Source: Octopus sinensis (lineage: Eukaryota). Taken from it: a DNA stretch of 64,000 bases. A model generated the notes under the pieces. The model did not search any database, had not been told where the DNA came from, and saw only the letters and a list, made by a program, of their open reading frames with translations. The stretch spans positions 68,138,001-68,202,000 of the forward strand of contig NC_043001.1 of assembly GCF_006345805.1 (NCBI RefSeq), read 5' to 3'. The position numbers and the translations under genes are program-made. Below, piece after piece: positions 215 to 62,273 of the stretch (its first letter is position 1; each line of letters starts with the position of its first letter).

Positions 215-320
215 GCACAGCAATCGTTTCGGCTACCTTCTGCATTGCTCCCTTATGGGTGGGGAACGATATAATGACATCAGATGCATCGTGCAGTGCG
301 AAGGAGCCTCATCAGGTGAC
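215..320 (-). ncRNA. Degenerate type I hammerhead ribozyme motif with very long stem II
   Basis: Minus strand: cac CTGATGA ggct cctt..ctgca..tgcag aagg t agcc GAAA cgattg ct gtg; cores and stem II pair, cleavage triplet is not NUH. Confidence 0.55.
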
Positions 321-974
321 GAAATAGGCTTCAAATGTTATAAGATTTACATTTCGTTCCAAGCTAGATGGTGGTATTATAGTGTGTTGCTAGTAGTTCA
401 CACACATTGGTGAAGTAAGGACACTTGTGGTTAGTATACAGGAAGTGGCTGATAAAAACAAACACAAAAAATATAATGTAAAGGATGAGGAATTGTTAAT
501 AGCATTAGATCGAAAGGCCCTAAAGCGTGTGGAGATCTTTGTTATGGCAGTCAAGCACGGCGGCTTGGTCAAGAATTTAGAGTGGGTGTGATTCCAGCCT
601 TTAGAATTGATGGCTGCTTAATTGCCCTATGGCCCATATTAATATTGCAACATTCACCAAGTTACACTTACGCCTATATAGACGCATACAAGTACTCATA
701 AACACACTCACATACGCACGCACACACGTGCAAACACATACCTGCACACACACACACACAGACGCATATACAGACACGTACAAGTTCACATTCACATAAA
801 CTCGCACATATGCACGCATATATAGTTATGCAAAGGTACTTCATTTCCTAATTTTTGGAGGAACATTTTGGATATATATATACATATGTGTGTGTGTGTG
901 TGTGTATGTGTGTATGTGTGTGTGTGTGTTTGTGTGTGTGTGCATGTGAATTTATATCTTTTATCATTTACATG

Positions 975-21247: not shown

Positions 21248-21323
21248 CATATATATATATATATATCTATATATATATATATTATATATATATTATATAT
21301 ATATTATATATATATATATATGA

Positions 21324-21404
21324 TAAAATTGGAACGATACAGAGAAAATTAGCATGCCCCTGCGCAAGAATGACACGCAAATTCATGAAGTGTTCCATAT
21401 TTTT
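21324..21404 (+). pseudogene. U6: U6 snRNA pseudogene lacking the 5' stem-loop
   Basis: TAAAATTGGAACGATACAGAGAAAATTAGCATGCCCCTGCGCAAGAATGACACGCAAATTCATGAAGTGTTCCATATTTT matches the U6 3' ~80 nt incl. ACAGAGA box and AGC triad; about 5 differences, two CpG-type. Confidence 0.93.
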
Positions 21405-27039: not shown

Positions 27040-27042
<3 letters not shown>

Positions 27043-27589
27043 TTAAGGATAAAATCTTTATTAGAAATTATCAGTAGTTAGCGTGAAAAACCTCGTAAGA
27101 GAAAAGATCTGTAAATTTTTCCACTTTGAAAATATTTATTTATATTATATAGAGGGTGCTATTATTCATAGGTACCGCATGCTAGGAGGGACTCTTGCAG
27201 TCAAAACTACTAAAATAAAAAAAATTGTACCGAATGCAAAACTTCAAAGCAAGTAATTTAAAAACAGAATTTAGTTACATATCACCTGTGATTTCGCAAT
27301 CAATGCAGAATATGCATTCTATGCTCTTCAGTGCAACGAACTCAAGACATGTAAGGAAAAAACACAATATAGCATACCCGACAGCCAACCGTAGAATTCG
27401 TCGTAGCATGTACGAATGTAACTAAATTCTGGTAACTAAATTCTGTGATATGTAACTAAATTCTGTTTTTAAATGACTTGCTTTGAAGTTTTGCATTCGG
27501 TACAATTTGTTTATTTTAGTAGTTTTGACTGCAAGAGTCCTTCCTAGCGTGTGGTACTTATGAATAATAGTACCCTCTATATAATATAA

Positions 27590-27591
<2 letters not shown>
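27040..27591 (-). mobile_element. Penelope-like/retrozyme-like non-coding element with ~150 bp head-to-head inverted copy
   Basis: 27137-27285 is the reverse complement of 27445-27591; flanked by (TA)n and (CA)n; carries a hammerhead. Confidence 0.75.
27274..27337 (-). ncRNA. Type I hammerhead ribozyme with canonical core
   Basis: gttgca CTGAAGA gca tag aatgca tattc tgcatt gat tgc GAAA tcac ag gtga TA tgtaac; all three stems pair. Confidence 0.85.
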
Positions 27592-27675
<84 letters not shown>

Positions 27676-30909: not shown

Positions 30910-30920
30910 TTTATTTTTAA

Positions 30921-31232
30921 AAGGATTTATCGAGTAGTCAGCGTGAAAAACCTCAAAAAGGGGAAAATTATAGTTATACCCTTTAAATATATTTATTTAT
31001 ATTAAGGGCATTAATACACATAAATGCCTCACGCTATGAGGGACTCTTAAAGTCAAAACTACCATAATAAATACAGTGTACCGAACGCGAGGGAATGCAA
31101 CACTCGAAGCGAGCTCGTTAAAAACAGATTATGATTTCATAATTAGCACACAAAATGCACTTTTTAATCGTCAGTGCAGACAGGCTTTTCGCGCTGAATA
31201 CTTGATAAATTCTTATAAAGATTTTATCCTTT
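30921..31232 (-). mobile_element. Diverged relative of the 27040-27591 element with decayed hammerhead and inverted terminal segment
   Basis: Shared agtag.cagcgtgaaaaacctc, gagggactctt..agtcaaaactac, tgtaccgaa; minus-strand CTGACGA..GAAA at 31174-31135; IR 30921-30949 / 31186-31214. Confidence 0.7.
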
Positions 31233-31346
31233 TTTAAAATTTAAAATTTAACCGGAATATATTCAGTGCTGAATTATTCTGAATATACACGTGTACCGAG
31301 ACATAATTCTTACATAGATATATACTAGTGAACAACTCGAATGTGC

Positions 31347-31510
<164 letters not shown>

Positions 31511-31540
31511 GTATATATATATATATATATATATTATATG

Positions 31541-32054
31541 TTAATAGTTATCGCCATACTAATATGGCAGTCTATAAATAAGACTACAAAAGTCTTATTA
31601 TAGACTGCCATATTAGTATGGCGATAACTATCAATATCCAGTAACGCTGCCGTAATCTCCTTTAGAGAGACTTAGTAATTTTAATATTTCTATTATTGAA
31701 AACAAGTGGATGTATTCCACTGTAACTAGGTAAATAAAATCTTCGAACAGACGGTCAGTAGCGACACCTGCTGGTTCTGACTACGCTGCATTGATAAAGG
31801 GCAGCAACCCTGAAACATGTCTGCAGATGTCTGACTAGCAAAGTGAAGCGGCTGACCTCCCCTGTTCGAAGGTTGTAATGGACGCAGGTTCGTGTGTCAT
31901 ATAGCTAGCTAGAGGCGGTGGCCTCTTGGAGCTAATCAGCGACAGCTTTAGTCTTATTTATAGACTGCCATATTAGTATGGCGATAACTATTAATATCCA
32001 GTAACGCTGCCGTAATCTCCTTTAGAGAGACTTAGTAATTTTAATATTTCTACT
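31541..32054 (+). mobile_element. Retrozyme-like element: ~360-nt unit, ~103-bp terminal direct repeats, 45-bp 5' inverted arm, embedded in (TA)n
   Basis: Direct repeats 31591-31692 and 31950-32052; inverted arm 31541-31585; central hammerhead. Confidence 0.8.
31770..31840 (+). ncRNA. Type I hammerhead ribozyme, U3-A8 core variant
   Basis: ctgca TTGATAA aggg cagcaa ccct GAAA catg TC tgcag; stem I extends via gac/gtc and gctggt/actagc. Confidence 0.8.
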
Positions 32055-32072
32055 ATATATTATATATATATA

Positions 32073-32281
<209 letters not shown>

Positions 32282-32295
32282 ATATATATATATAT

Positions 32296-32352
<57 letters not shown>

Positions 32353-32358
32353 ATATAT

Positions 32359-32616
32359 GGAGGCGCAATGGCCCAGTGGTTAGGGCAGCGGACTTGCGGT
32401 CTTAGGATCGCGTTTCGATTCCCAAACCGGGCATTGTGAGTGTTTATTGAGCGAAAACACCTAAAAGCTCCACGAGTTCCGGCAGGGGTGGTGATCCCTG
32501 CTGTACTCTTTCATCACTCTTTCTCTCACATTCGAAGGCTAAAACAATGCGAACGCATTGTGATCAGCGATGTGTAGCAACAGCTGATGATCTGGTAAGT
32601 CATGTGATCCCGTGAT
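32359..32616 (+). mobile_element. tRNA-derived SINE family D
   Basis: GGAGGCGCAATGGCCCAGTGGTTAGGGCAGCGGAC A-box, GTTTCGATTCCC B-box. Confidence 0.8.
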
Positions 32617-40526: not shown

Positions 40527-40647
40527 TATATACACGAGTCAGTGGACATGTAACTCACACGTTTAGTGGGAGTTACATATATTATTTAAAACAGTTTGAT
40601 TCAATTTCCGAAACTTAAAGTAGCACGAATCAAACTGATTTTTTTAA

Positions 40648-40732
<85 letters not shown>

Positions 40733-40743
40733 TAATAATAATA

Positions 40744-43360
40744 AACGCCAACGCTTCTTTGAACAAAACAAAAAGTTCAACTCCAACCCCAAAAAGTTCT
40801 ACCAAGAACTGGGCAAAAATAAAATAGAAGTCACTGCAGCACCAACGGCAGAAGAATTGGAAGAATTCTGGAGAGAAATATGGTCGGCGAACGAACAACC
40901 CAAAAAAAGGAGTATCAAAATAACAAACTCAGCATCTGAACAACTTTGGACCCCCATAACAACTGAAGAGGTCACCCAGGCACTGCAAAGACTAAGCAAC
41001 TGGAAGGCACCTGGGCATGACAAGATCCCCAACTTCTGGTTGAAATATCTAACAGGAATGCACAAAAAGCTGGCTGAAAACTTTAATAACATACTAGCAG
41101 AGCCAGAGACAATGCCTGAATGGCTCACGAAGGGGAAAACCATCTTAATTCCCAAATCAAATGAAACAGCAAAACCAGAAAACTACAGACCAATAACCTG
41201 CCTCCCTACTATGTTCAAGGCATTTACTGCAGTGATATCGCAAATGCTGAACAAGCACCTGGACGAAAACAAACTGTTCCCAGAAGAGCAGAAAGGATGC
41301 CGCAAAGGCTCATATGGCTGTAAAGATCAACTAATGATTAATAAAGCCATAACTGAAGACAGCCAGAGAAAGAAGAAAGGCCTCAGTATGCCCTGGATTG
41401 ACTACAAAAAGGCGTTTGATAGCATCCCCCACACATGGATCCTCGAAACACTAGCCATTAACAAAGTAGCACCAACAATCATAAAATTCATAGAGCACTC
41501 TATGAATAAATGGCAAACAGTCCTACATCTCCAAACAAAAGAGGGACTCATGAAAACCAAAGACATCCCCATTAGAAGAGGAATATTCCAGGGAGACACG
41601 CTCTCTCCACTCCTTTTCTGCTTGTCACCTCTATCTGATATACTAAATAGAACTGGATGCGGATATAAATGTTACGGCAAAACGATCAGCCACCTTTTAT
41701 ATATGGATGACCTAAAACTATACGCTGCAAATGACAAACAGCTGGAAACACTATTAAAGACAGTTCATGGATTTACCAAAGAAATAGATATGAAATTTGG
41801 ATTAGAAAAATGCGCCAAAGTAACCATGAAAAGAGGAAAACTAGTTAAGAGTAACAACATCACACTAGATAAAACCAATGAAATAAAAGAATTAGACCAA
41901 AGCCAAACTTACAAATACTTAGGAATCCATGAACTAGATAAGACACAACACACACAAATGAAAGAGAAAATAAAAAAAGAATATTATAGACGAGTTAGAT
42001 CAATACTAAAAACAGAGCTCAATGCTAAAAACAAGATAATAGGTATCAACACTTTAGCTGTCCCAGTTATAAGTTACAGCTACAATATCCTTAACTGGAC
42101 ACGAAATGAACTGACCAAAATAGATAGGAAAACAAGAAAAATAATGACAGGATCTAGGATGCATCACCCAAAATCTGACATAGAAAGACTATATATACAA
42201 CGTATAGAAGGTGGTAGAGGCCTTATACAGCTGGAAAACTACTATAAAATAACCACCATAGGACTTCAAAAATATCTACTCCAGAAGGAAGGAAAACTGA
42301 TACAAATAGCGGCAAAACACGAGCAAAATAAAAAACTGTTCTCAGTATTTAAGGAAGCTGACAAATACAAACAAGAAATCATACCACCTAATAAACATGA
42401 AGAAGAAAAAGAAGAAGATGAAGAAACAACAAAAGCTATAAAACAAATGAAATCCAAACTAAAAGTAGAACAGCAACGAACCATGATAAAACGATGGCAA
42501 GAAAAGCCCCTTCATGGTAAATACTAGACTAAACTAAACGCAAAAGAAATAGACAAAGAAAAATCCCAGCAATGGTTGAGAAGCTCAGGACTCAAAGCAG
42601 AAACAGAGGGATTTTTAATTGCAGCACAAGACCAAAGCCTCCCCACCAGAAATTACCAAAAACATGTAATGAAAAGAAATATTACAAGTAACTGCAGAAT
42701 ATGTGGAGATGGACAAGAAACAATAAATCATATTATCTCTAGCTGCCCAGTCCTGGCTAAGAAGGAATATATTCACAGACATGACAGAGTTGGAACCTAC
42801 ATACATTGGAAGCTATGCCAACATTATGGAATAACAACAGAAAAAAGATGGTATAGGCACACACAAGAAAAGGTCACAGAAAACGAGAAAGCAACCATAC
42901 TCTGGGATATGCCGATACACACAGATAGAGAAATTAAGGCCAACAGACCAGATATAGTTGTCAGAGATCATGAGGAAAAAAATGCTTTCTAATTGATGTA
43001 TCAATACCGGCAGATGACAACGTGTCTCCAAAAGAAATGGAGAAACTCTCAAAATACAAAGACCTGGAAATAGAGGTAACTAGAATGTGGAATCTGAAAA
43101 CAGAAACAATTCCTATCATAGTAGGTACATTAGGCATGATAAAAAAATATTCAGACAAATACATAGCAAAAACACCAGGACTTACAAACACATATAACAT
43201 ACAGAAAATTGCACTACTAGGCACTGCACACATCCTACGCAGAACACTTTCCATACAATAACCATCAGAGCATCACAACAAATCACAGCACATACCCAAG
43301 GCACACAGAGCTGCGCTCGGTAGTGAAGTGAAAGCACGCTATAAAAATAAAACTACTGAA
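40744..43360 (+). mobile_element. Dong/R4-like RLE LINE family A, 5'-truncated, nearly intact RT-CCHC-RLE coding region
   Basis: KAPGHD, NYRPITCL, EEQKGC, DYKKAFDS, GIFQGDTLSP, LLYMDD; CRICx8Hx4C; RPDIV..IDVSIP..KEMEKLSKY; premature TAG at 42525 and a frameshift near 42975; (TAA)n on both sides. Confidence 0.96.
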
Positions 43361-44413: not shown

Positions 44414-44620
44414 ATTAATTCCTTTATTGGCCACAAGGACTTACGTAGAACAACATGAAATGACAAAACAGGACGATACAAAGGGTTTTAAAACAAGCAT
44501 ACGATATGATATCACACCCCTGAATAATAAAACCAATGGAAATGTATGGAGTAGCAGAAAATAGGAAAAGCCTTATGTTGAATAGCATGAAACACTGGAG
44601 AACAGAATTAACAGCAGAGA
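44414..44620 (-). mobile_element. Tx1 3'UTR fragment
   Basis: ttaattcc..tattggccacaagg..acaaaacaggacga..tacaaagggtttt matches 58547-58635. Confidence 0.75.
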
Positions 44621-44626
44621 ATTAGT

Positions 44627-46112
44627 GTGTCCCTACTGATCTTCGTGCTGGGAATGATCCCCTTGAGCGAAATACTACAGAAACCCATGTCGGGGTATGG
44701 TCTGGAAAGAGGTAAGCGAAAACTGAACCACTTGCTAGAAATGGACGACCAAAAACTGAGGCAAAACTACATAGCCTTGTTCAGTCTGTGCGGATTTTTG
44801 TCCAATGATATTAAGATGGAGTTTGGACTCTCTAAATGTGTTACAATGGTGATGAGAGGAGGAAAGCTTTTCAGAACAGAAGGCATATGGTCGCCAAGTG
44901 ATGAAATGATGAAGGCAATTCAACATCAGTCCAGCTATAAATACCTAAGAATACTTGAGGCAGATGCAATGAAACACAATAACATGAAGGAAAAGACAAA
45001 AAGAGAGTATCTGCAGCGAGAGAGAAAAGTTTTGGCTTCAAAGCTAAATGCCAGAACCATAATTTCGGCAATGAACTCGTGCTCAGTCGCCGTAGTTCTG
45101 TATGACGCTGGAGTCCTAAAATGGACAGAGGAGGAGCTATGGGAGATGGCCAGGAAGTGAAGAAAGCTTCTAACGATGCATGGTGCCCGTTATCCACTTG
45201 CGGGCACTGATCGCCTATACATGAAGAGAGCAAATGGAGGAAGAGAACTGATAAGTGTGGAAGACTGCATGCGTATCGAACTCGAGAGCTCAATAAGATA
45301 CCTAGCCCGAAGTGAGGAAACCTTGCTAGTGACAGTTAGGAACGAGGGAGTATTGAGAGCAGAGAAAGAACAGAAAACAAAGGAAGAAATGCAAAAAGGA
45401 CATGAAAATGATTTATGCAAGAAGGGACTACACATTCAATTCCATGCAGCCGCAACAGAAGTTGCTGGAAAATATAGGAGGGAACACTAAAAAAAAGAGA
45501 CCGAGAGCACAATACTGGCAGCACAAAACCAATCGTTGGCCACGAACTGGGAGGTCAACCTTAGGAATGAGCAAGTGCCTCCACTCTGCCGCATCTGCAA
45601 TAGAGTGTATGGAACCATTGCCCATATCACAAACAAATGTCCTAGACTTATCCAAAACCATTATAAGTTGTGGCGACACAATCAGGTAGCGAAAGTACTA
45701 CATTGGAAACTGTGCAAAAAGTGGAGGCTAAAGAGAGAGGCAAGACGTGGTATGAGCACAAACGGTAGAGAGTGGCGGAGTCGGAGAATAGCAAAATCCT
45801 CTGGGATTTCCCAATCCAAACAGTTCAGGTGCTAGAGTATAACAGAACGGACCTCGTGGTGGTGGACAAGATGCACCACATATGCTATATAGTTGATGTT
45901 GCATGCCTCTTTGGCCCACGAATAGTCAAGAAGGAAGGCGAAAAGATAGATGAATACAACCTTCTTAAATACAAAATAGCCCGGCTATGGAAAATGAAGA
46001 AGATGAAGAGAGTGCAAATTATTGTTGGGTCCTTCGGATCAGTATCAGAAAGGAGGTAGCAAGTCCGCTATGCATGAAAGACTTCAGGAGTTCCAACAAA
46101 ACCTGTGATAAA
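44627..46112 (+). mobile_element. Dong/R4-like LINE family B, 5'-truncated, decayed
   Basis: LNHLLEMDD, MEFGLSKC, YKYL, DRLYMKRANGGR, CRIC..H..C, ILWDFPIQT..DLVVVDK..IVDVAC. Confidence 0.9.
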
Positions 46113-46886: not shown

Positions 46887-47989
46887 TAACCACCATAGGA
46901 CTGCAAAAATACCTACTTCAGAAGGAAGGAAAACTGATCCAGATAGCAGCAAAACACGAGCAAAACAAAAAACTGTTCTCAGTATTTAAGGAAGCTGACA
47001 AATAGAAACAAAAAATCATACCACCTAATAAACACAAAGAAGAAGAAGAAGATGATGAAGAAACAACAAAAGCTATAAAACAAATGAAATCCAAACTAAA
47101 AATAGAACAGCAACGAGCCATGATAAAACGATGGCAAGAAAAACCCCTTCATGGTAAATACTGGACTAAACTAAACGCAAAAGAAATAGACAAAGAAAAA
47201 TCCCAGCAATGGTTGAGAAGCTCAGGACTCAAAGCAGAAACAGAGGGATTTTTAATTGCAGCACAAGACCAAAGCCTCCCCACCAGAAATTACCAAAAAC
47301 ATGTAATGAAAAGAAATATTACAAGTAACTGCAGAATATGTGGAGATGGACAAGAAACAATAAATCATATTATCTCTAGCTGCCCAGTCCTGGCTAAGAA
47401 GGAATATATTCACAGACATGACAGAGTTGGAACCTACATACATTGGAAGCTATGCCAACATTATGGAATAACAACAGAAAAAAGATGTTATAGGCACACA
47501 CCAGAAAAGGCCACAGAAAACGGGAAAGCAACCATACTCTGGGATATGCCGATACACACAGATAGAGAAATTAAGGCCAACAGATATAGTTGTCAGAGAT
47601 CATGAAGAAAAAAAAATGATTTCTAATCGATGTATCAATACCGGCAGATGACAACGTGTCTCCAAAAGAAATGGAGAAACTCTCAAATTACAAAGACCTG
47701 GAAATAGAGGTAACTAGAATGTGGAACCTGAAAACAGAAACAATTCCTATCATAGTAGGTGCATTAGGCATGATAAAAAAATATTCAGACAAATACATAA
47801 CAAAAACACCAGGACTTACAAACACATATAACATACAGAAAATTGTACTACTAGGCACTGCACACATCCTACGCAGAACACTTTCCATACAATAACCATC
47901 AGAGCATCACAACAAATCACAGCACATACCCAAAGCACACAGTGCTGCGCTCGGTAGTGAAGTGAAAGCACGCTATAAAAATAAAACTA

Positions 47990-58818: not shown

Positions 58819-61800
58819 TCACAGGCGAAACTTGAGAATTGGTCCATTTATAATGGTCATTCTTGCACAATTCACCCACCTTTCAGAAAACTTGCTATCG
58901 GACAGCACTCTCCTCTCTAACCTCATCTTCCTTTTCAAGTGAAACTTGAAAAAGTTGATGAGGCCTTGACCAAAGAGGAAAGTGTCTGACTTTAGCCCTT
59001 TGAAACCGGTCCACCATACAACCTCTTTCGCCACAGCCACTAGGCACAAGAAAACGGCCTCGCCCTCCTTGTTAAAGGAGGTCGGCGGGGCAATCTTCAC
59101 TATGGATTCGGCTGATAGCCGGATCCGTCCTATACGCGACAGTAAGTGTTCGACATAAACCCATATTTCAGCAATACTCGGGCTCTGGACGAGTGCGTGC
59201 AGAACGGTTTCGTCGTCCGGGCAACACCTGGGGCAGGCCCGGCTGACGGCACTTCCGTACCGGTAGAGATTATCCCAAACAGGCAGAGCTCCTCGGTAGC
59301 ATTGCCAGGCGAGCGACCTCTGGAAATTATCCATTGGCCCCGGCCCGAAAGTCCTTCCGAACAGACCGCTCAGTTCGTTATCGTCAACGCCTAGAGTTTC
59401 TCCGAGAACGTCGTCGCATTTTTCCTACACTAACCCTCTATAGAATGCTAGAGTGGGACTGAAACCGATCGCATTGCTCGCCTGGCGGAGGGCGGAGCGA
59501 GCTTGAGGGCACTTGAGGTGCCAAGCGCCCTTTCTCGGTCTACGTTTGATCCAGGTCTGCAGCTCTGTCAAAGAGACGAGCTGCGGAAAGTCGCGTCTGA
59601 CAAACGACGACCACACCTGTTAACCGTCTAGGAAACGCTTGAGATGTCGCAGCCTGAGCGCATGTCTGCGCATCAGTAACCACGGCATGCCAAGGCCTCC
59701 GTTCAGCGGTCGTTGACAGCAGATGGATCGCTGACCTGTGGCACCTGACCCTTCCACAAAAAGTCGAAGAGCAGCCGTACCAGCTTGGCCAACCAGCGGT
59801 CGGGACAAGGGACGACGGTCAAGCGGTAATAGATGACCGATGCGATGTACACATTCGCCACCTCCGCTCGACCTTTCAGGGACAGCTTCCTCTCGGCCCA
59901 TTTCTGGGTGAAACGTGCCACCCTGCTCGTCACCTCTTCCCAGTTTTTATCCACCTGGAGGTCCGGACCGAACCAGACCCCGAGCAGTTTAACGGGTCCG
60001 TCTGTCCAGCGCCCTACGACGCTGTTGGACGGCATGGGCTTGCCTCTCCAGGTGCCCAGTTGCAAGCCCACAGACTTTTCCGCGTTAATCTTTGCTCCTG
60101 TCACCGCTTCGTACTCGTTTAGTGTCTCACTAATCAGGCCAATGTGCCTGTGGCTCGACACCATCACGGTGACGTCGTCAGCATAGGCAGACACGCTGTT
60201 TCCGCCTCCTAGATCGCGCTGATACCCGTCAAAGCCTCCAACTTGCGCAGTAGTGGCTCGAGAGTCAAAATGTACAAGAGGGAGGAGATAGGGCATCCTT
60301 GGCGGACCGAACGCGAGAGTTCAAACGGTTCCGAAAGGTGACCGTTCACCCGTATCACCCGTATCACCAAGCAGATGTTGCTGTATAAAGCAGCGATCCA
60401 CCCGTGGAACACTGGACCGAAGCCGGCTGCCTTGAGAACAGCTGCCAGGTACCGGTGGTCGACCCTATCGAAGGCTTTACTCTGATTTAAATTGATCAAA
60501 GCCCCACCCGCGCCAGCATCGTTACCCATCCTCTCTATGATGTAGCGCATGAGATGGAGGTTGTCGTGTATCGACCTGGTCGGCACGGCGCATGTCTGCG
60601 TCTTGCCAACCAGCGTGTCCACGACAAGCGCCAATCTCTTGGCTAGCACTTTGGCCAAAATCTTCAACTCTGCATCGAGCAGAGTGATGGGCCCAAAATT
60701 CCCTATAACGTCCCCCTTGTTTGGTTCCTTTTTTAGCAAAGCCACCACCCCTCGACAGACAAAAGCAGTAATTCTCCCGTTCTGCTGCCAGTTGCAGTAG
60801 ACGTTTGCCAACAGGCCCGCAAACAAGTCTGGCATTGAAGTGTAAAGCTCGTAGAGCAGACCACCCAAACCCGGCGATCTACCTCTCGTGCAACTCTTCA
60901 TCGCTTCTTCCACTTCCCAGGCAGATATCGGTCCTTCGCAGCACTCTGCCTCGCTGTTCGAGAGTTGCGGTAGGCCGTCCAGGTACACACCGAAGTCTGT
61001 GCCGATGGTGTCCGTTCCACCGTTCGTCGTCCCAAACAGTTGAGCAAATTGCCGCTGAAACACCGCACACATCTGCTTCGGTTCGGTAACCTCGCGCCCG
61101 TTCTGGTCCACCAAAGACCGAATGGTTGCTTTGTTGCCTCGCTTCGCCTCCGCCACGCGGGCCCATCGAGCGGCTCTAGTCCCCTCCCCGCTTAGCGAAC
61201 GTGCATTAGCTCTGACAACGCAGCCTTCGTGTTTGGCGTCGAAGTGTTGGTCGAGGGCCAACTTTGCCGCCAACACGTCGGTCGCGATGCCAGTCTCAAG
61301 AGCCTCGTCTAGTTTCTTAACTAAATCCCGCTCTCTCAAACTACGTTCAATAGCTAGAGCCTTACTAAACCTAATCGACTCTACTCTAATTGCTCTCTTG
61401 AGGGCAAACCACCAGTTGTTGTTGATGATTGCCCCCGTGAGCGCCCGCTTAACTAGTAAACTAATCCGGTCTCTGTAAGCTTTGCATGTCGTTAACAACG
61501 CGTTCAGCTTCCAGTAGCCGGGTCCCTGTCTATGTAGCCTATCTAAGTCGACCGTACAGATCACGAATTTGTGTAGTCGACTAGGTGGAATTGTGGACAC
61601 CCTATGCTGTCCTTATCCGCTGGCCTACAAAACACTCTATCTAAGTACGATCTAGACGACCCGATGCGATTGGTCCAAGTCCACATTGGCACATTCGGGT
61701 TGTCTAGTCGAAACCTGTCGGACAGCTGAACGCGTCCGAGTAGGTTGGCGAGGCTCTTGCACCCTCCTCTCCTATTAGACGCTCCCCTGCCCACCCGATC

Positions 61801-62233
61801 GAAACGTTCGTCTAACTAGCACTAGAGTCCGTGACGTTCCCAGGAAAACTTTCAGACGTTTGAAATAATCCGACTGCCCTGCTCCTGTCGGAGCGTAGGC
61901 AGCCAGCAGTCTGAAAGCACCGCCGTCACTACCGTCTACGTCGAGGACCACCAACTTACCTTCCGGATCCAGGAAGACTGTCCTTATTTTCAAGTCCAGG
62001 CCCTTCCGAAACAACACCGCAGTACCACCACCGCCCGCTCCCGGCCGACACGGAGATAGAAATATCTCGTATCCGTCGAAAAGGGCTGCGAGTTCCTGCG
62101 GGTCGGAGAGCCTGGTTTCACTAATGGCTGCTACATCCACATCATGAAACCTCAGGTCGTTTAACAGGTGACCCTGTTTCCAAGGTGACCCGAGGCCTCT
62201 CACATTCAAGCAACCGATTCTAAGTTTTGCCAT
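58819..62233 (-). pseudogene. Tx1 ORF2 (APE endonuclease + reverse transcriptase), frameshifted
   Basis: LNVRGL, ISET, YAP, SYLDRVF, YWKLN, SKAFDRVDH, SVRQGCP, AYADD, CPRC..ETVLHAL split over several ORFs. Confidence 0.93.
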
Positions 62234-62273
62234 GTTTCAAAGGTGGGAAAAAAAGTAAAAGGAGAAAAAGGCT

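Follow-up and report, generated by a model that had tools for sequence, protein, structure and literature searches.

A U3-A8 Hammerhead Motif in an Abundant, Noncoding 360-nt Repeat from Octopus sinensis

INTRODUCTION

Positions 3 and 8 of the hammerhead ribozyme core form a Watson-Crick pair in the active fold, and the C3-G8 pair and its confirmation have been summarized (PMC3884650). The pair covaries to U3-A8 in "several" natural hammerheads (Perreault et al., 2011; PMC3088659), and U3-A8 ribozymes are reported there, with reference to Przybilski and Hammann (2007), to be active in vitro. U3-A8 cores also occur in the Cercyon elements of Schistosoma mansoni, with about 1,300 motifs; minimal hammerheads of Penelope-like elements (PLEs) are described in the same paper as cleaving poorly even as dimers (Cervera and de la Pena, 2014; PMC4209133). 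These 2011 and 2014 papers were the only ones with wording on U3-A8 in our literature search, which most subscription papers lay outside, and no paper was found in the literature on C3U combined with G8A.

Axolotl retrozymes carry hammerheads whose monomer cleaves poorly and whose dimer cleaves well; their RNAs are circularized, PLEs have been proposed as the mobilizer, and the question has been raised of how metazoan retrozyme circles escape linearization by their own hammerhead (Cervera and de la Pena, 2020; PMC7229834). Dimeric hammerhead cleavage has been described elsewhere as well (PMC6765202; PMC6155905). Penelope-type insertions have a known layout of partial tandems, inverted 5' copies, and microsatellite targets, and Naiad elements multiply without hammerheads (PMC8557442). 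The last paper was the only one found in the literature on a hammerhead or retrozyme in octopus or another cephalopod. No canonical-fold retrozyme family with a U3-A8 core was described in the literature searched, which included few subscription papers.

Here we describe a U3-A8 hammerhead motif in a 64,000-nucleotide stretch of Octopus sinensis DNA (NC_043001.1, positions 68,138,001 to 68,202,000, forward strand), which we call the window. Although the original prediction, made from the sequence, implied that a U3-A8 core was novel, natural cases were in print in 2011 (PMC3088659) and 2014 (PMC4209133). We conclude that the motif is a new example of a known variant and not a new kind, because the U3-A8 swap has been published since 2011.

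RESULTS

A Type I Hammerhead with a U3-A8 Core

Every part of the hammerhead predicted at 31770 to 31840 could be located on the plus strand:

31786 to 31826, plus strand: type I hammerhead, with core U3 at 31791 and A8 at 31796
31786 to 31790 with 31822 to 31826, plus strand: helix I, five Watson-Crick pairs
31791 to 31797, plus strand: core positions 3–9, read from the sequence
31798 to 31801 with 31808 to 31811, plus strand: helix II, 4 bp, closing pair A10.1-U11.1
31802 to 31807, plus strand: loop 2, 6 nt
31812 to 31815, plus strand: G12-A13-A14-A15.1, from the sequence
31815 to 31820, plus strand: helix III segment, a self-complementary 6-nt palindrome (fold and duplex prediction)
31821, plus strand: C17, with cleavage predicted at 31821/31822 by hammerhead numbering
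31770 to 31785, plus strand: 5' strand of the helix I extension, with internal loop 1 at 31782 to 31785
31822 to 31839, plus strand: 3' strand of helix I and its extension (fold prediction)
31779 to 31781 with 31829 to 31831, and 31770 to 31776 with 31833 to 31839, plus strand: distal helix I pairs (fold prediction)

The motif has the three-way junction, open helix I, helix II, and NUH site of a type I hammerhead, and the core nucleotides U4, G5, A6, A9, G12, A13, A14, A15.1, U16.1, and H17 are all present. Positions 3 and 8 depart from the literal C3-G8 consensus and can form a Watson-Crick pair as U3-A8. Both of these changes had been noted in the original prediction, which named them as the only departures but overlooked a third, the closure of helix II by A10.1-U11.1 instead of the usual G10.1-C11.1. 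In the extended helix I, an internal loop places 31782 to 31785 opposite 31827 to 31828, and the helix resumes out to 31770/31839.

The motif had been likened to PLE hammerheads, but its fold is nearer the canonical retrozyme type than the minimal PLE type. With the Cercyon motifs of S. mansoni it shares U3-A8, a high copy number, a Penelope-type context, and a dimer-dependent design (PMC4209133). As described in that paper, however, the minimal motifs have a helix II of 7–8 bp, an extra base after A9, and an ill-defined loop 1, and they lie in repeats on either side of a reverse transcriptase (RT) open reading frame (ORF); in the octopus motif, which lies in a unit without an ORF, helix II is 4 bp long, A9 is not followed by an extra base, and helix I is extended and has an internal loop, so that the motif falls outside the minimal S. 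mansoni type. The Sm-alpha hammerhead (PMC2632901) likewise has an internal loop 1 in which the strand 5' of the core carries UAC, and its 6-nt loop 2 (CAAAUA) is identical to that in about 40%–59% of the depth of the octopus family; it differs in having C3-G8, and helix I of the octopus motif has five pairs plus a G·A mismatch. The small difference from published U3-A8 hammerheads is thus that a canonical, Sm-alpha-like fold is found in a short noncoding repeat, rather than a minimal motif in an ORF-bearing element.

A 360-nt Unit Inserted between (TA)n Tracts

The hammerhead lies within an insertion (31538 to 32056) that is set between two (TA)n tracts:

31347 to 31537, no strand assigned: (TA)n microsatellite, left flank (sequence and repeat analysis)
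31538 to 31586, minus strand: 5' inverted arm, the reverse complement of 31949 to 31997, 98% over 49 nt (self-BLAST)
31591 to 31696, plus strand: upstream partial copy of the 3' part of the unit, a pseudo-LTR-like direct repeat
31697 to 32056, plus strand: full 360-nt period, noncoding, GC 0.43
31739 to 31874, plus strand: long rod that ends in the hammerhead (fold prediction)
32057 to 32359, no strand assigned: (TA)n microsatellite, right flank (sequence and repeat analysis)

The partial copy matches 31950 to 32056 at 97% over 107 nt with a period of 360 (self-BLAST), and the inverted arm can form a DNA hairpin with 31590 to 31634. The tandem extends over 1.3 units at this locus; in public sequencing runs (see below), contigs crossed both unit junctions in all four runs analyzed, and none spanned a unit. 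Self-BLAST found no second family copy within the 64-kb window. The longest stop-to-stop frame in the unit is 56 codons, and the insertion contains no ORF and in particular no RT plus GIY-YIG ORF between the repeats. There is no tRNA gene in the window, and no tRNA-derived head of the repeat was detected. Folded as a circle, the plus strand of the unit has a predicted free energy of −119.5 kcal/mol (z −5.35; none of 100 shuffles was equally stable), and the reverse strand is also predicted to fold stably (z −4.14).

The unit resembles non-LTR retrozymes in being noncoding and of similar size (350–390 bp in mussel and 330/350 bp in axolotl; PMC7229834), within a range of 150–450 bp. With metazoan non-LTR retrozymes it shares a GC content under 50% (43% here), a highly self-paired circle, and one type I hammerhead per unit, and with the axolotl hammerhead HHR_Amex1 a helix III made up of a single pair and a palindromic tetraloop (PMC7229834). 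It differs in its A-U closure of helix II, in having only 1.3 units, and in its U3-A8 core, which is not apparent among the retrozymes described in that paper.

The partial tandem, inverted 5' copy, and microsatellite target are also those of a Penelope-type insertion, and they bear on an alternative reading in which the unit would be the pLTR of an autonomous PLE, left here as a 5'-truncated stub, and the motif a PLE hammerhead that acts on element transcripts, with no independent RNA circle. These features are PLE hallmarks, published U3-A8 cores sit in PLE motifs, and the contig depth drops sharply between 31730 and 31760, as might be expected at a PLE-type tail of 30–40 bp and a usual copy end. 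This reading is nevertheless unlikely: the unit has no ORF over 56 codons, the hammerhead fold is canonical and not minimal, and contigs cover the entire 360-nt period, with a fraction of only 0–0.02 running on into unlike sequence. The rarity of such contigs fits a short nonautonomous unit weakly, because the repeat contigs are short.

U3 Is the Family State

The stretch under study was present in 20 of 24 listed public runs, from nine studies and under four organism labels. We analyzed contigs with at least 80% likeness to the unit in four of the 24 runs (X1, X2, X7, and X9, with 3628, 4559, 1457, and 236 contigs, respectively; three organism labels) and recorded differences from 3% of depth. 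The contigs are short, lose rare variants, and never cover the whole unit; their summed depth exceeds that of single pieces by a factor of thousands and is not a copy number.

Among the best-supported 40 of 65 variant rows, none falls at 31791 (position 3) or 31796 (position 8). The places at which T>C reached 3% or more numbered 5, 5, 6, and 6 in the four runs. Because all of these are accounted for by rows elsewhere than 31791, C3 is below 3% of depth in each run, and a canonical C3-G8 consensus is therefore excluded for copies with at least 80% likeness. The corresponding limit on A8 is looser. Two, one, two, and three A>G places per run fall outside the best 40 of 65 rows, so some U3-G8 copies may exist in the family; a majority G8 is nevertheless unlikely, because the rows kept are the best supported and the weakest of them peaks near 11%, and A8 is likely to be the majority base. 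A loose-end consensus of seven diverged X7 contigs (agreement 0.72) kept U3 and A8 and differed in helix I and II letters. Virtually all the compared copies thus have U3, very probably together with A8, a combination that preserves the Watson-Crick pairing of positions 3 and 8 in the active fold.

These results settle a choice that had been left between a family feature and the decay of a single copy. Descent of the 31786–31826 copy, as a lone double mutant, from a CUGAUGA family is consistent with both changes being transitions, and the comparison covered only copies with at least 80% likeness; with C3 below 3% of depth in four of four runs, this account is refuted for the compared copies and is extremely improbable overall. 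The proposal that U3-A8 is the family consensus holds for U3, and for A8 it is likely without being bounded by counting. Depth over the core is only approximately 10%–15% of the peak on the unit, and more diverged subfamilies, possibly with C3-G8, may be missed.

The Best-Supported Variants Spare the Ribozyme Core

We also examined variation across the rest of the ribozyme and unit. Among the best 40 of 65 rows, no variant falls in core positions 3–9 or 12–15.1 and none in helix II, one in helix I preserves pairing, and three are in loop 2. G31804 in loop 2 is rare: A accounts for at least 99.8% of depth at this place in the four runs (264,301 of 264,593 in X1). Changes at 31805 and 31806 reach 38%–59% of depth, and their near-equal depths suggest that they are linked; together with the majority A31804, they give the loop 2 sequence CAAAUA. 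Either 31785T (4%–27%) or 31827C (10%–34%) closes a sixth helix I pair, and 31780G and 31830C, if linked, would jointly preserve a distal helix I pair. T>C at 31818 (13% in X7 and 19% in X9) is compatible with the helix III palindrome only if 31817 changes as well, and no such accompanying change is among the best 40 of 65 rows. When the same 40 variants were placed on the predicted circle, 21 were unpaired, 8 kept or rescued a pair, and 11 broke one; because of these 11, the rod beyond the ribozyme is without firm covariation support.

This pattern can be set against passive spread, in which a founder with the double change would have had a dead or nearly dead ribozyme and copying would have been independent of cleavage. 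Near-fixation of U3 could indeed stem from a single founder, without selection. Minimal PLE hammerheads are reported as poor cutters even as dimers (PMC4209133), Naiad elements proliferate hammerhead-free (PMC8557442), and A10.1-U11.1 is a second departure from the consensus. We nevertheless consider passive spread rather improbable, as the core (3–9 and 12–15.1) and helix II are invariant in the best 40 of 65 rows whereas loop 2 and the flanks vary, this invariance extends across subfamilies up to 20% diverged, and U3-A8 is reported to be active in vitro (PMC3088659).

Standard Searches Miss the Motif

We used shuffled windows to determine how often such a motif arises by chance. With a loose descriptor that left positions 3 and 8 unconstrained, there were 0.15 matches per shuffled window, and as 27 of 200 shuffled windows contained a match, the loose hammerhead shape alone is weak evidence. 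A Watson-Crick 3-8 pair reduced this to 19 matches in 1000 shuffled windows, and the further addition of a palindromic helix III to 0 in 1000; both criteria were chosen post hoc, with the motif already seen.

As had been anticipated, standard models miss the U3-A8 motif. Rfam gave no hammerhead match anywhere in the window at gathering score, and at E values up to 10 none of 11 matches in 31540 to 32060 was to a hammerhead family. The miss reflects the limited reach of the models, because a C3-G8 motif at 27331 was also missed at gathering score. Separately, miRNA-like Rfam matches at 31541 to 31634 were rejected, being below gathering score and arising from the inverted arm.

The C3-G8 motif is a second type I hammerhead (27275 to 27337, minus strand; C3 at 27331), with a 6-bp helix I, a long bulged helix II, and a helix III of 4–5 bp. 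Its host is a microsatellite-flanked element at about 27041 to 27592 with 149-nt inverted arms (27137 to 27285 and 27445 to 27592; 94.6%). A 73%–83% relative of this element, with inverted parts, adjoins (TA)n at 30913 to 31243 and yielded no hammerhead in a descriptor scan. Elsewhere in the window, a U6 snRNA match (21299 to 21404, plus strand, 96 bits), in which AT repeats replace the 5' stem, is probably a truncated retrocopy. Broken ORFs (40590 to 42992, 44612 to 45160, and 47006 to 47605, plus strand; 58819 to 62236, minus strand) appear RT-like and endonuclease-like on reading of their translations, as in non-LTR retrotransposon remains. Judged by the U6 match, the microsatellites, and these ORF pieces, the window is eukaryotic.

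We searched metagenome contigs for further U3-A8 motifs. A family-specific pattern gave no matches. A general U3-A8 pattern matched 120 loci, which came from 6 of the 64 parts of the collection; 18 of these loci have three or more helix II pairs, and none resembles the window element. Only one of the 120, L093, has a convincing full fold (about 280 to 350, minus strand), with a helix I of six or more pairs, a 6-nt loop 2, and an 8-nt palindromic helix III; partial repeats of its 3' part follow the hammerhead. Because the unrelated L093 also combines a canonical fold with U3-A8, the combination is not unique to the 360-nt repeat family.

Predicted Folding Is Consistent with Dimeric Cleavage

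In the monomer, helix III consists of 1 bp and a palindromic tetraloop, with a predicted pair probability of 0.0, whereas two copies pairing through the palindrome at 31815 to 31820 are predicted to form a 6-bp duplex (−4.6 kcal/mol). Dimeric cleavage, at which the palindromic loop had been taken to hint, fits these predictions, as helix III would not form in the monomer. When two copies were cofolded without constraints, the result was a helix I strand swap and not a double hammerhead; folding of this kind does not model the core. In the predicted circle, helices I and II have pair probabilities of 0.79–0.95, and an inactive alternative, with the core base-paired to the cleavage site, has a probability of approximately 0.4. 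The 31786–31826 copy itself probably cuts weakly or not at all, because the insertion at 31538 to 32056 contains a single ribozyme and the rare loop 2 change.

DISCUSSION

Taken together, our results make it probable that the motif is the hammerhead of an abundant, noncoding, retrozyme-like unit of 360 nt that cuts in tandem transcripts and is copied by Penelope machinery. Tandem copies of the unit would be transcribed, helix III would arise when two hammerheads pair through their 6-nt palindromes, and cutting after C17 would free a unit-length RNA. Circularization and reverse transcription of this RNA would then yield insertions into (TA)n as partial tandems. Copying would most likely be carried out by a PLE enzyme, as the insertion layout matches that of Penelope-type insertions. 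The anatomy, the layout of the insertion, and the family state at position 3 are established here, whereas we infer the activity of the U3-A8 core, cleavage as a dimer, the RNA circles, and the Penelope partner from the literature on related systems.

In Perreault et al. (2011; PMC3088659), the same covariation is described in rare cases, with no family-wide norm apparent there. The octopus repeat is a natural case in which 3-8 covariation characterizes a family whose hammerhead has a canonical fold; this abundant family is also one that strict core descriptors and Rfam overlook. As the 3-8 pair and the U3-A8 variant were settled between 2006 and 2014, the gain is one of cataloguing unless the core change tunes circle stability. 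A speculative and improbable extension of the retrozyme-like reading is that the weaker U3-A8 pair, A10.1-U11.1, and the core-masking fold have become fixed together as a brake in an active, very abundant family, such that multimers would be cut as dimers and monomeric circles would stay closed. If this were true, the family would be a natural test case for the question of circle self-linearization raised in PMC7229834, and censuses based on CUGANGA would be overlooking whole families of retrozymes.
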